A stretch of 64,000 nt of DNA from the NCBI GenBank assembly GCA_947629655.1, contig CANREL010000004.1:13577-77576 (forward strand), given 5' to 3'. Below the pieces are notes generated by a model. The model ran no database searches, was not told the DNA's origin, and saw only the letters and a list, made by a program, of their open reading frames with translations. Position 1 is the first letter of the stretch; the number at the start of each line of letters is the position of its first letter. This DNA comes from an uncultured Bacilli bacterium. GTDB taxonomy: Bacteria > Bacillota_I > Bacilli_A > RF39 > UBA660. A program made the position numbers and the translations under genes. This document shows positions 45,878-60,309 of this stretch, one piece after another.

Positions 45878-48800
45878 ATGAGCTATATAAAATCTTTTGA
45901 TGAAGAAGAATTTGAATCTTTAAAAGAGTATTGTCAAAAATATAGTTCTCAATATGGACTCAGTGCTCATGTCATGGAGTTATTAGATGAGAATGGACTT
46001 TATTATTTGAATAAATTTGTCAATGATGATGAAGATTTTGATGAACGTGATTTTGATACTTTAATAAGAGCTTTCTTTGATGGTTTTGATTTTTATTATG
46101 ATCGTTTAGATGATAATTATTTATTAGCGGCTAAAGAAAAATTAGAAGAGACTTTTTCATTCTTTGAAGATAGTCATTTAGATGATGAACACAAAAGTGA
46201 AATTGTCGATAATTTTTTTGAAATACTATCGAGTTATACGCGTGAAGAGTTGAGTGATAGTAAAGCTTTATACTATTTATTGACTTCTGATGTTTTTAGA
46301 AGGAGCAACATGGTTAAAGAATATTTGTACAATTCTTATAATTCGGTTGCTACTAGTAAAGAAAAGTTGGTCTTTTTTGTCAAAAATCTATATGATTTAT
46401 TGAACAAATTACCATATGAAGATGCTCACAAAGTCGATTATATATTTTTGAGTAGTTCTGATGCCTTCACTTATTTTTTAGATGTACCTGAAGAGATGAA
46501 TATCTTTTTTAATGAGAGAATTTTATCAAAATTTGGAAAAGAGACCTTGAGCTTTCTATTCAGAATGTCAGATTATTCTGTCTTCAGCAGTTTTTGTAGA
46601 TCTGATGATAAGTTTTTGTCTGTCGTAGCAGCTATGAATGAATACGTATTAAAAAAATATAATAAAAATTCTTATTTCTTTGATGGAGTTTTTAAATTTT
46701 TTAACAGATTTGAGAAAAAAGATATTAGAGCTAGAAAAATAATCATTGATCTATTCTCTGAATATTATGACAAATATTTTGAAGAAAGTAAAAAGAATGG
46801 TTTTGAAAACGATGAGATTTTTAATAATTTATTGGGATTAATTCTGCAACATCGTGATGTAATATATTTTTTGAATGAAAAAAATATTGAAAATTTAGAT
46901 GATTTCTTTAAAGCGACGAGAGAGAAAATAGATGAATTACACACGACTATATTTGGTAAGGAAGGTTTGGTCAAGTTTAAATATGGTGTCTTTGATCCAA
47001 AAAAAGATTTTCCACCTTTTGAGATGCGAGTACAGGGACTACACGATTTGAAAAATGCTTTCTTGCAAAGAGTTTATGGAATAACTTATGAAGATGCCTT
47101 TTATATCGCGTCAAAATATGGAACTTTTATCGAGCTATGTCAAGATGAAATAGCGGATGAAGATCGTGATGTTTATGAGATAGTTAAGACGATAACCGAT
47201 GTCGCTAATATGATTGATTACAATGGTAATAAAATAAATAATATTAGATTAGCTGCCCATGAATTTATTAAGAATAAGGGACTTTATAATTATAATAATG
47301 GGTCTTGTTATCCGATTCTATTATCATTGATTAATCGCATGTACATGCATGCATATAATGATTGTGTCTTTAAAGTTGATGAAAATTCTAAAGTTTTATA
47401 TCGTCAAAGAAAAGTTCCTGTAATTGATGCAGGAGTTAATTTCAACATGATTGTAAGTTCTATCAATGCTGTTGATGAGTTTTATACCAGTCGTGATAAC
47501 ATGATGGAGAAGTACAACATATCGAGTCGTTCCAATAATCAAGGAATTTGTGCAAGTTTTATCAATAATGAAAGTTTAGGAGTCATATCTTTACGCCAAC
47601 CATTAATTGGGTATGCCAATTTAGCTGATGACAGTTTGGATGCGATGGGAGTTGGTGATATATATTCCAAAACGATTGATTTAGATTTGTTGAGAGCTAA
47701 TTCTACAACTGGTGAGGGAAATTATTTCTTCACTCCTAAAAAATATATCGATTATACAAGATTTGGATATAACGAAATGGTCGTTGATCGCTTTTTGGTC
47801 AAAGATGATGACGATGCGATAAAAGTTCAACCGAGTTACATAGTTGTCTATAAAATAGATGACAATTATAAAAAGACTAGAATGTATAAAAAAGGAATAA
47901 GAATGGCTAGAGATTTTGGTGTTCCACTAGTCTTAGTTGACGTTCCAAAAGTTAAAGAAAATGAACGTGATATCATTCTTCAAAAAGAAAAAGAATTATT
48001 CAAAAGTAGTAAAGTCGATAAGGAATTATTAAATGAAATAGTAACGCGTTATATGAATAATTACAGTGGATCTTTAACGATTATGCGAAGTCGAAATCGC
48101 CGTGGAAATGAATGGCACTATCCAAAGGATTTCTCTGTGCGTGGTTTGACGAGATTTTTAGATAAAGTGGCTCGAAAGTTTGAAGATTTTGATGAAGCAC
48201 AAATAGAAGAGTGGAGTCAAGCTTTGAACGAAGTTTATAATTTAGAAAAAGAAAAGAACAAAATGGCTTTACAAATAAATGATTATGAGGATTCATTGAG
48301 TGGTGGAGAATTTTTACTCGATGATAAGATCATGTTTTCAGAATTTGTTCAAAATATCAAAGATCGCAATATCAATCGTCTTCTTCTCAGAAAGGGCATG
48401 TTTGATCAAGATAAATATTTACACATACCAGATGTCAAAGTACCAAGTGATGTCCAATTGATTGTCGATTTAGCAAACTTATTGTGTAAGAGTAAAGTTT
48501 ATGCCAATGTCAGTGGTCACAATGGGGAAAATATTTATCAGACGAAGAAGACTTATGATTATAGTGAAGAAGAAAAAAATGCTTATGGTCTCGTAATTTC
48601 TTATTTACTTGGGGACTATAGTACTAATTATTTTGCTAATCTCGATACTTGTGATATTACAAATATCAAAATTGATGAAAATATCCAACGCGTTGAGAGG
48701 TGCCTAGATGGCAATGATGCTTTTTCTAATCAGAATATCGATACAGAATTGTTATTAAAAGTTGCTACAGATATTGAAGATCTACCAACGGCAATCTTTT

Positions 48801-48958
48801 CTAAAGTGTTTAGACCATTCATTCAAGATTACAGTGCAAAGATGGGCGTTGCTCCAGATAAAGTACGCGATAATTTTCTTCGTAAGAAAGAACACATTTT
48901 TAGTGAGATGTCTAAATTTGCCCGTTCTGATAGAATTAATAAAGCAATTAGTAAATAA
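45878..48958 (+). CDS. Giant cytoplasmic protein, paralog A (1026 aa), of an unrecognised family: ~480-aa helical N-terminal domain, ~300-aa conserved core, and a variable C-terminal extension.
   Basis: Good RBS AAGGGTGGTGA, no signal peptide. Shares colinear motifs with the 53730 and 57111 ORFs: LLNRMYM, IDAGV.FNMIV, QG[IL]C[AV]S, R[FY]GYNE[MI]..[DE]RFL, QPSY[IV]V.YK, [DE]FG[VI]P[LM]V[LV]VD and RYMNN.SG. Confidence 0.7.
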   Translation: MSYIKSFDEEEFESLKEYCQKYSSQYGLSAHVMELLDENGLYYLNKFVNDDEDFDERDFDTLIRAFFDGFDFYYDRLDDNYLLAAKEKLEETFSFFEDSHLDDEHKSEIVDNFFEILSSYTREELSDSKALYYLLTSDVFRRSNMVKEYLYNSYNSVATSKEKLVFFVKNLYDLLNKLPYEDAHKVDYIFLSSSDAFTYFLDVPEEMNIFFNERILSKFGKETLSFLFRMSDYSVFSSFCRSDDKFLSVVAAMNEYVLKKYNKNSYFFDGVFKFFNRFEKKDIRARKIIIDLFSEYYDKYFEESKKNGFENDEIFNNLLGLILQHRDVIYFLNEKNIENLDDFFKATREKIDELHTTIFGKEGLVKFKYGVFDPKKDFPPFEMRVQGLHDLKNAFLQRVYGITYEDAFYIASKYGTFIELCQDEIADEDRDVYEIVKTITDVANMIDYNGNKINNIRLAAHEFIKNKGLYNYNNGSCYPILLSLINRMYMHAYNDCVFKVDENSKVLYRQRKVPVIDAGVNFNMIVSSINAVDEFYTSRDNMMEKYNISSRSNNQGICASFINNESLGVISLRQPLIGYANLADDSLDAMGVGDIYSKTIDLDLLRANSTTGEGNYFFTPKKYIDYTRFGYNEMVVDRFLVKDDDDAIKVQPSYIVVYKIDDNYKKTRMYKKGIRMARDFGVPLVLVDVPKVKENERDIILQKEKELFKSSKVDKELLNEIVTRYMNNYSGSLTIMRSRNRRGNEWHYPKDFSVRGLTRFLDKVARKFEDFDEAQIEEWSQALNEVYNLEKEKNKMALQINDYEDSLSGGEFLLDDKIMFSEFVQNIKDRNINRLLLRKGMFDQDKYLHIPDVKVPSDVQLIVDLANLLCKSKVYANVSGHNGENIYQTKKTYDYSEEEKNAYGLVISYLLGDYSTNYFANLDTCDITNIKIDENIQRVERCLDGNDAFSNQNIDTELLLKVATDIEDLPTAIFSKVFRPFIQDYSAKMGVAPDKVRDNFLRKKEHIFSEMSKFARSDRINKAISK

Positions 48959-49017
48959 AAACTAAAGTGTAAATTAAAGTAAAATTGACGTAAAAACATT
49001 TTAGTTTTTTTTATTTT

Positions 49018-60092: not shown

Positions 60093-60096
60093 AGAG

Positions 60097-60309
60097 ATGA
60101 AAGCAAGTGAATTGAGAAGAATTGTTGAAGAAAAAAAGGGTGTTAACAATGAGAGAAGTACTAGTAGTATTTCTAATTTAGATGATGATTATGGAAGTTA
60201 TCATGAGACTATTCTCAATAATTATTTAGAGGATGTCGGTGCTATTTCTAAATATATTAATGATGGATTAAAAGAAGTAGAAAAAAATAAGAATTTACCA
60301 AACGTTTAG
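60097..60309 (+). CDS. 70-aa ORF that is a stand-alone copy of the N-terminal module of the ARH gene. Either a remnant or a small regulatory paralog.
   Basis: ILNNYLEDVGAISKYINDGLKEV versus ILDDYLKDVGPISKFINEGFEEI of the 52538 ORF. RBS GAAAGGAAAG. Followed by a terminator. Confidence 0.45.
   Translation: MKASELRRIVEEKKGVNNERSTSSISNLDDDYGSYHETILNNYLEDVGAISKYINDGLKEVEKNKNLPNV

Follow-up and report, generated by a model that had tools for sequence, protein, structure and literature searches.

In Serratia proteamaculans, the T6SS (type VI secretion system) toxin Tre1, an ADP-ribosyltransferase (ART), is accompanied by Tri1, a DraG-like immunity hydrolase whose N-terminal extension occludes the Tre1 active site and whose DraG-like domain reverses the modification (PMC8120803). 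Listeria lmo0066-lmo0067 likewise places an ART-fold protein beside a DraG-family ADP-ribosylglycohydrolase (ARH), and nitrogen fixers have the regulatory pair DraT-DraG, in which the writer is co-encoded with its ARH-family eraser and both work within the producer. CteC of Chromobacterium violaceum, a 276-aa type III secretion system (T3SS) effector, is a mono-ADP-ribosyltransferase that modifies Thr66 of ubiquitin. The SidE network of Legionella combines a mono-ADP-ribosyltransferase and a phosphodiesterase with the glutamylase regulator SidJ, and is reversed by the phosphodiesterases DupA/B and the ADP-ribosylhydrolase MavL (PMC11668277). Here we describe an island of eight genes in a 64,000-nt stretch (the window) of an uncultured Bacilli genome, contig CANREL010000004.1, in which an ARH gene lies among three giant paralogs with an ART-like centre. 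We give an even chance to the reading that this island is a lineage-specific, fast-diversifying ADP-ribosylation conflict module, fixed in the chromosome between yebC and pyrH.

The island (window positions 45878-60309) consists of eight open reading frames (ORFs), all on the + strand: the three giants A, F and G, a paralog with their N-domain only, a kinase-like gene (kinL), a PHP gene, the ARH gene and a 70-aa small ORF. A first-pass annotation had proposed this set of genes, including a HipA/PI3K-like kinase and a fragment copy of the N-terminal module of the glycohydrolase, between yebC on the left and pyrH on the right. All eight ORFs were found again at the same positions, and the observation was borne out, as detailed below. 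Other ORFs within the island are only short antisense ones. The genes and their two flanks are:

45109..45828, + strand: yebC (TACO1/YebC family, 1.6e-61), left flank, about 90% identical in related metagenome-assembled genomes (MAGs)
45878..48958, + strand: giant A, 1026 aa, assigned from the ORF and paralogy
49059..49877, + strand: kinL, kinase-like, 272 aa, assigned from family invariants and weak HipA_C matches
49879..51147, + strand: PHP-domain phosphoesterase, HisJ-like, 422 aa, assigned from Pfam PHP
51211..52503, + strand: N-domain-only paralog, 430 aa, assigned from its match to the giant profile
52538..53641, + strand: ARH of DraG/Tri1/Lmo0067 type, 367 aa, assigned from Pfam ADP_ribosyl_GH
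53730..57098, + strand: giant F, 1122 aa, assigned from the ORF and paralogy
57111..60092, + strand: giant G, 993 aa, assigned from the ORF and paralogy
60097..60309, + strand: small ORF, 70 aa, a free copy of the ARH N-terminal peptide module, assigned from BLASTP
60376..61086, + strand: pyrH (uridine monophosphate kinase, AA_kinase family, 4.5e-36), right flank, about 88% identical in related MAGs

The ART-like nature of the giants was recognised from predicted structure and from conserved residues. In the predicted structure of giant G, the conserved centre has the split beta-sheet of the ART fold, with CteC as its fold neighbour. The functional residues of CteC are R65, S97, D134 and E220, and a helical insertion precedes the strand of the Glu (PMC10810742). 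In the giants, which are only 9% identical to CteC, the strand-1 site, the Ser motif, the Asp and the catalytic Glu come in the same order and at like distances, and the helical insertion recurs. Conservation was counted in 80 superfamily sequences with a mean column identity of 13%, using the numbering of giant G. CteC R65 corresponds to T495 on strand 1, a position occupied by Thr in 45, His in 20, Ser in 8, Arg in 5 and Asn in 2 of the sequences. S97 corresponds to C526-x-S528 on strand 2, 31-33 residues further on (32 in CteC), with Cys or Ser at 526 in 79/80 and Ser at 528 in 73/80. The counterpart of D134 is D562, which follows S528 by 34 residues (37 in CteC) and is present in 78/80. 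E220 is matched by E598, invariant in 80/80, which opens strand 599-602 after the helical insertion and is placed as in CteC; this pairing was inferred from order and spacing, not from residue-level superposition. Close by, N597 is conserved in 73/80 and R603 in 76/80. The pattern G-x-[C/S]-[T/A/C]-S-h-I on strand 525-531 resembles the G-h-S-T-S-h motif, with the first Ser usually replaced by Cys.

The candidate active-site residues are T495, C526-x-S528, D562, R593, N597, E598 and R603 in giant G; T575, C606-x-S608, D642, R678, N682, E683 and R688 in giant F; and S527, C558-x-S560, D594, R628, N632, E633 and R638 in giant A. The domain is called ART-like on the basis of a single structural neighbour, CteC, and of motif congruence, and this is the main uncertainty. 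The giants may found an undescribed clade of the ART superfamily.

The three giants are 25-30% identical to each other over their full length (HMM E = 0). In giant G, an N-domain (aa 30-465) is followed by the ART-like core (466-655, nt 58506-59075), a helical linker (656-765) and a C-domain (766-993). Giant A has a helical N-domain, the core at aa 497-690 (nt 47366-47947), a helical linker and a variable C-domain, and in giant F the core covers aa 546-740 (nt 55365-55949). Each giant has a large helical domain ahead of the core, and a helical linker and a variable C-domain behind it. When the window giants were compared with each other, the core was 42-48% identical, whereas identity in the N1 and C domains was 15-31%. 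The 430-aa N-only protein matches positions 24-467 of the giant profile alone (E 9e-52); it corresponds to the helical N-domain, stops precisely at the start of the ART-like core, and is 48-59% identical in relatives, which is more than the giants are. Giant F also carries an N-terminus (53730-53960) of about 75 residues that is extremely acidic and disordered-looking, D/E-rich and with many 'DxxF/L' patterns. This segment is absent from giants A and G, and some relatives, proteins of 1217-1247 aa, are extended further.

The giants had been placed by the first-pass annotation in no recognised family, and this has held up: no match was found in Pfam, NCBIfam, PHROGs, PADLOC or PDB sequences. 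"Hypothetical protein" is the sole name given to them by any source, and no description of the family was found in the literature on DUF4116, polyvalent proteins and DefensePredictor. Among 5.8 billion proteins, a word-indexed search picked out only 16 relatives of giant G. A full profile scan of 1.84 billion representatives gave 624 clusters, 469 of them at E <= 1e-10; these relatives, counted as clusters at 50% identity (~600), include none with a name or a Pfam model. The end of the N-domain together with the central alpha/beta domain is, judged from these matches, a mobile, unannotated domain, because distant relatives match profile positions ~290-770 alone, within proteins of 400-2200 aa. 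Several other candidates were rejected. A Foldseek search of the full-length G model against the PDB gave nothing below E = 1, the top match being PI4K II-beta at a probability of 0.23. PDB sequence and profile matches of the giants and kinL to a designed cage, FliG, Bcl-xL and a calpain EF-hand were set aside as compositional or helical.

The ARH gene encodes a full-length ADP-ribosylglycohydrolase (PF03747, 8.9e-67); the score of 226 bits exceeds the cut-off of 26.2 bits, and the match spans profile positions 2-286 of 287. Its closest solved structures are Lmo0067 (8za7, 2.4e-79), Tri1 (6dre, 1.9e-39) and DraG (2woc, 5e-26). Among NCBIfam models it matches Tri1 (1.2e-53) and DraG (2.9e-38), each under the equivalog cut-off (182 bits against 490 bits for the Tri1 equivalog NF041672), and it is therefore filed as DraG-family only. 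The acidic motifs WSDDTS (aa 95-100) and GDDTDT (aa 307-312) align with WTDDTS and GDDADS of Tri1 (6dre) and with WSDDSS and GGDTDT of Lmo0067; we take them to be metal ligands. The island ARH matches the Tri1 model and structure, and Lmo0067 still better.

Like Tri1, the island ARH has an N-terminal extension, here a peptide module some 45 residues long (aa 15-50, nt 52580-52687) with the motif YLxDVGxISxxINxG. The protein aligns with the Tri1 profile only from position 71 on, so the two extensions are not homologous and the architecture is analogous only. Unlike that of Tri1, the module also exists as a free ORF: the 70-aa protein at the end of the island is 52% identical to ARH residues 20-46 over 27 residues (BLASTP E = 4e-9). 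The module is conserved across species and occurs in every locus of the cassette. It was found as a free ORF in L004, L009, L011, L017 and L019, and in a 47-aa version in L008, and it may stand after a giant, before the ARH or fused to the ARH; the ARHs of relatives lack it or have it encoded as a separate ORF.

The kinL family comprises 35 clusters in 5.8 billion proteins, all of about 270 aa. Among 33 sequences, G16, G17, G19, K34, E53, D129, N134 and D147 are invariant and H131 is conserved in at least 90%. These residues form a G-rich loop (G16, G17, G19), a catalytic loop (D129-x-H131-x-x-N134) and a metal-binding Asp (D147). The catalytic loop reads D-S-H-G-K-N-F, presumably the HipA-type pattern. 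Sub-threshold Pfam matches were obtained to HipA_C for 14/33 members and to PI3_PI4_kinase for 2/33 (best E 0.005); the best HipA_C match of kinL (E 0.016) reached 15.3 bits, below the 30.5-bit cut-off. From its motifs, kinL looks like an active atypical kinase, and membership in HipA is not established. It shares with HipA-family and PI3/PI4-kinase-fold enzymes the D-x-H-x-K-N-F loop pattern, the G-rich loop, the Lys, the Glu and the metal-binding Asp, but it is half the size of HipA, lacks a HipB or HipS partner and carries a tail common to the giants.

This helical tail (aa 194-260) shares homology with the very C-terminal end of the giants (G 917-983, hhalign probability 93.9%, HMM E = 4e-6). 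An earlier idea that the C-domain of the giants is a pseudokinase was downgraded to this shared tail: HMM and BLAST alignments had reached kinL 112-259, hhalign backs the last 67 residues only, and the giants have no D-x-H-x-x-N loop.

The PHP protein was recognised by Pfam PF02811 (2.7e-8, 34.8 bits against a 26.4-bit cut-off). Its ligand motifs (H-x-H, E, H, H, D-x-H) are readable as H-S-H-T, GFEAEY, QHY, AHPD and DAHFP, and a C-terminal extension of about 130 aa is present. The closest solved structure is the histidinol phosphatase 2yxo (4.8e-10); the protein was not filed as a histidinol phosphatase because it falls under the NCBIfam HisJ subfamily cut-offs.

Of 185,579 species genomes scanned, only four had the giant family, all of them uncultured Bacilli/Bacillota MAGs: one from goat rectum, two from rabbit gut and one further Bacillota MAG. 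Related loci (labelled L004 to L020) were compared by BLAST of their ORFs against the window proteins and by contig look-ups. The cassette is syntenic in about 8 of them, from uncultured herbivore-gut Bacilli, in the common order tadC, yebC, giant A, kinL, PHP, N-only, (peptide), ARH, F-type giants, G-type giant, peptide, (ABC exporter), pyrH. Counting only loci that show the region in question, kinL follows giant A in 6/6, PHP is present in 5/6 and ARH in 6/7. Individual parts vary: L008 has neither PHP nor ARH, and L010 has no N-only gene. Giants number two in L009, three in the window, six in the goat MAG and at least nine consecutive copies in L017, with F-type copies in relatives ranging from 1 to 4 or more; the goat MAG has two more distant paralogs elsewhere in its genome. 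In L008-L011, giant A orthologs stand right after yebC and are 35-44% identical. Between the window and the related loci, yebC and pyrH are 88-92% identical, ARH 60-69%, kinL 47-62% and the giants 35-45%.

This conserved linkage supports the first-pass proposal of a reversible-modification system, for which the ART-like fold would supply the missing "writer" to the ARH "eraser". A match of the giants to a characterised family combined with a lack of conserved linkage, which had been named as counting against that proposal, was looked for and not found.

More distant members of the superfamily occur in other settings. In a second architecture, an ART-like core is joined to a C-terminal HD phosphohydrolase domain in proteins of 1220-1411 aa with N-terminal repeats (L012 4206-12148, JAFSDH010000004.1; L020 15112-19347). 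The HD domain itself was detected only in the 1411-aa protein of L020 and in protein P0125, and the L012 paralogs resemble both. The N-terminal repeats of the 1220-aa L012 protein have a weak DUF4116 match. In L020, the 1411-aa gene lies within the yebC-pyrH island, with an unrelated 58-aa ORF next after it. The goat MAG has two copies of this architecture elsewhere in its genome. Members of a 690-aa subfamily lie mostly on human-gut contigs, and clustering of their neighbours gave no consistent ADP-ribose-related partner. One member, the 680-aa protein P0121 (L014 1-12026 and L015; Logan SRR14160758 / SRR14160747) has a conjugative-element-like context, with PcfJ, PcfK, SSB, DUF3846, an ArdC-like protein with a HELSH motif and a stand-alone HD protein as neighbours. 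Mobile elements thus seem to carry part of the superfamily. A phage or plasmid origin was looked for with the core and P0121 as tblastn queries in INPHARED (phages) and PLSDB (plasmids), and a viral one by scans of IMG/VR; neither returned a match or relative.

The reading of the island as an ADP-ribosylation conflict module brings these results together. What has been shown is the gene content with its paralogy and synteny, the similarity in fold, the conservation of residues and the rates of divergence. Functionally, the island recalls ART/ARH pairs such as Tre1-Tri1 and DraT-DraG. Besides the motif congruence with CteC, the reading is favoured because the ARH is intact in the operon and has Tri1 and Lmo0067 as its closest characterised relatives. 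It is also favoured because the linkage has been kept in about 8 loci despite a turnover of giants from 2 to at least 9, because the peptide module is conserved, alternates between fused and free forms and always stands beside a giant or the ARH, and because the kinL motifs are intact and its tail is common to the giants. The divergence of the giants against the near-constancy of yebC and pyrH, and of their flanks against the conserved core, is the signature of an arms race.

In the proposed mechanism, the giants would transfer ADP-ribose from NAD+ onto a target picked by their variable domains. The quickly evolving flanks would set the specificity for target or trigger, and the paralog array would widen recognition. 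The ARH would remove the ADP-ribose, as a reset or as self-protection. The peptide module would bind the giants and dock the eraser on them or, when alone, occlude the active site, as Tri1 does on Tre1. kinL and PHP could be a second opposing pair, with either that target or the ADP-ribose moiety as its substrate. We lean towards an intracellular, defence-like sensor-effector array rather than exported toxins, because the catalytic centre is conserved and the flanks diversify, export signals and trafficking domains are absent, and one eraser serves many writers.

Multi-step ADP-ribose chemistry is conceivable, because the core pairs recurrently with HD or PHP domains and because similar activities co-occur in the SidE network (PMC11668277). 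Like that network, the island holds an ART-like protein, a phosphoesterase (PHP, with HD fused in paralogs), a kinase-like accessory and an ADP-ribosyl hydrolase. SidJ itself has a kinase-like fold. No sequence homology to SidE-network proteins was detected in the island, whose eraser is of DraG type and not a macrodomain; there is no deubiquitinase or ubiquitin context, and the organism, a Firmicute of the gut, is not known to live inside cells. The giants differ from CteC by large extra domains, and there is no evidence that they have a ubiquitin-like target. We consider rather unlikely, as a whole, a fuller version in which sensor-like ART giants of a new clade mark targets, the kinase and PHP/HD enzymes process the mark in a SidE-like manner and a peptide-guided ARH resets it, within an intracellular immune or conflict system.

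Several observations weigh against the conflict-module reading. No ART family was matched in Pfam, NCBIfam, PHROGs or PADLOC at E <= 1. The strand-1 Arg or His is Thr in G (T495) and F (T575) and Ser in A (S527), and the canonical His or Arg is present in about 30% of relatives only, so that in the window giants NAD+ binding or the substrate may be of another kind, or activity may be lacking. L008 has no ARH, and no ARH, PHP or kinL was found beside distant members in 28 metagenome loci and in L013, L014 and L016. All syntenic loci belong to one narrow lineage, and the linkage may partly reflect shared ancestry. PADLOC matches and known defence genes nearby are both absent; all 8 proteins matched 0 families of PADLOC-DB v2 at E <= 1. 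The roles given to the kinase and the PHP protein are conjecture.

A less likely but serious alternative is that the giants are exported polymorphic ART effectors or toxins, delivered into competing bacteria or into host or protist cells, with the ARH and the small peptide protecting the producer. The nearest relatives of the ARH fit such a role: Tri1 is an immunity protein with an occluding extension (PMC8120803), and lmo0067 is adjacent to lmo0066, which lies within a hypervariable T7SS (type VII secretion system) toxin hotspot (PMC5417603). Paralog arrays, fast divergence and small ORFs behind giants are toxin-immunity-like, the fold neighbour CteC is a secreted effector, a Tad pilus operon stands directly upstream, and relatives have an ABC exporter downstream. 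The architecture, however, differs from that of Tre1 and of polymorphic toxins in general (LXG/T7SS, Rhs, contact-dependent inhibition). The giants are about 1000 aa long, their ART-like domain is central and not C-terminal, and they lack the Arg of the R-S-E triad. They have no signal peptide, and Pfam found no LXG, WXG, Rhs, PAAR or other trafficking or secretion-associated domain in them. The polymorphic-toxin pattern is reversed, since the central catalytic core is the most conserved part and the termini vary, and small ORFs follow some giants only. One ARH serves 3 to at least 9 paralogs in a locus, L008 has none, and kinase-like and PHP genes are added. T6SS and T7SS genes are absent from the window, and Tad pili are not known toxin exporters.

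Less likely as well, in our judgement, is the explanation that the core is not an active ADP-ribosyltransferase and serves as a pseudoenzyme or scaffold that only binds NAD+/ADP-ribose or the ARH, or that it performs a different chemistry, such as that of an NAD+ glycohydrolase, a phosphorylase or a Cys/Ser nucleophile acting through C526. The strand-1 residue is at the centre of this alternative: in CteC the Arg is essential, R65A being inactive (PMC10810742). In the window giants it has become Thr or Ser, and the His of distant members (HS.., HGxC, RHxHNE) is lost; for this reason the domain was named ART-like and the alternative was kept. Position 526 alternates between Cys and Ser alone (67/12), as nucleophiles do, divergent ARTs such as RES are NAD+ phosphorylases (PMC9503650), and the core recurs fused or adjacent to HD/PHP phosphohydrolases. 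Against this, the invariance of E598 and the near-invariance of D562, S528, N597 and R603 across very divergent sequences indicate a maintained active site, and the linkage to an ARH is most simply explained by an ADP-ribosyl product.

Endogenous regulatory signalling, in which the giants, ARH, kinase and PHP protein reversibly modify the cell's own proteins as DraT/DraG do, is very unlikely: the locus is chromosomal, vertically inherited, of native GC content and without mobility genes, has two apparent writer/eraser pairs, encodes only cytoplasmic products and has an ARH that matches the DraG model, yet DraT/DraG and other regulatory pairs are usually single-copy, conserved and target-specific, in contrast to a hypervariable array of 2 to at least 9 giants without nif context that are 35-45% identical next to housekeeping genes at ~90%, and distant relatives lie in conjugative-element contexts (PcfJ, PcfK, SSB, ArdC-like).

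If the core is an active ART, as the conflict-module reading supposes, a large unannotated clade (~600 clusters) would be added to the ADP-ribosylation toolkit. Its architecture would be unusual, with the catalytic domain at the centre, flanks that diversify and up to nine or more giants in tandem, served by one common eraser and a portable peptide module. The "occlude and erase" principle of Tre1-Tri1 would be extended to Gram-positive gut bacteria, and ADP-ribosylation would be tied to kinase and phosphoesterase steps outside Legionella.

The GC content of the window is low, about 30%, and the composition of the island is the same as that of its surroundings. No mobility genes were found among the island ORFs, as the first-pass annotation had said, and neither tRNA genes in the island nor inverted repeats flanking it were found. 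Its view that the products are cytoplasmic was also confirmed: a hydropathy scan gave no transmembrane or signal segment, and no island protein has a hydrophobic 19-mer above a Kyte-Doolittle value of 1.33, as against 2.6-3.3 reached by neighbouring membrane proteins. Promoter and terminator scans of the DNA gave no excess over the shuffled expectation. There is no sign of recent gene conversion between the paralogs, whose DNA repeats are codons of the conserved core and merely 62-78% identical. The other genes of the window are ordinary chromosomal ones (PknB-type kinase, ProRS, Mur ligases).

Related loci hold some genes that the window does not. A 582-584-aa ABC exporter (ABC_membrane + ABC_tran) is present in most relatives, near pyrH or within the island. 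In L004/L007 (L004 17047-18801) and L009 (15168-16916) it separates pyrH from the last giant or peptide; in L019 (23477-) it comes after the last visible giant, and in L020 (13348-15102) before the 1411-aa HD-type paralog. Between PHP and the N-only gene, L019 (6709-7355) and L020 (1-408) have two additional small genes of 138 and 76 aa, neither with a Pfam match. In L009 (MAG contig SVAL01000008.1), a KilA-N gene (3752-4570, 5e-24) is inserted between yebC and giant A, which hints that this interval accepts foreign genes.

On the other side of yebC, a complete-looking Tad/Flp-type pilus operon (window 35542-45097) ends just before that gene, and the order tadC-yebC-island is kept in related MAGs. 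The operon encodes a 911-aa protein with a prepilin N-methylation motif and Listeria-Bacteroides repeats, TadE/TadG-like pseudopilins, a TadZ-like ParA ATPase, a CpaF/T2SSE ATPase and two T2SSF (TadB/TadC) proteins. Predicted surface proteins with Ig-like, cadherin-like, cohesin, transglutaminase-core and polysaccharide-deacetylase domains are encoded at window positions 20565-29100 and 61700-62731, and in L004 the region downstream of pyrH encodes a protein of >2200 aa that carries VWA and Cna_B domains. The surface proteins of the window and of L004 suggest an adhesive lifestyle of this uncultured lineage.

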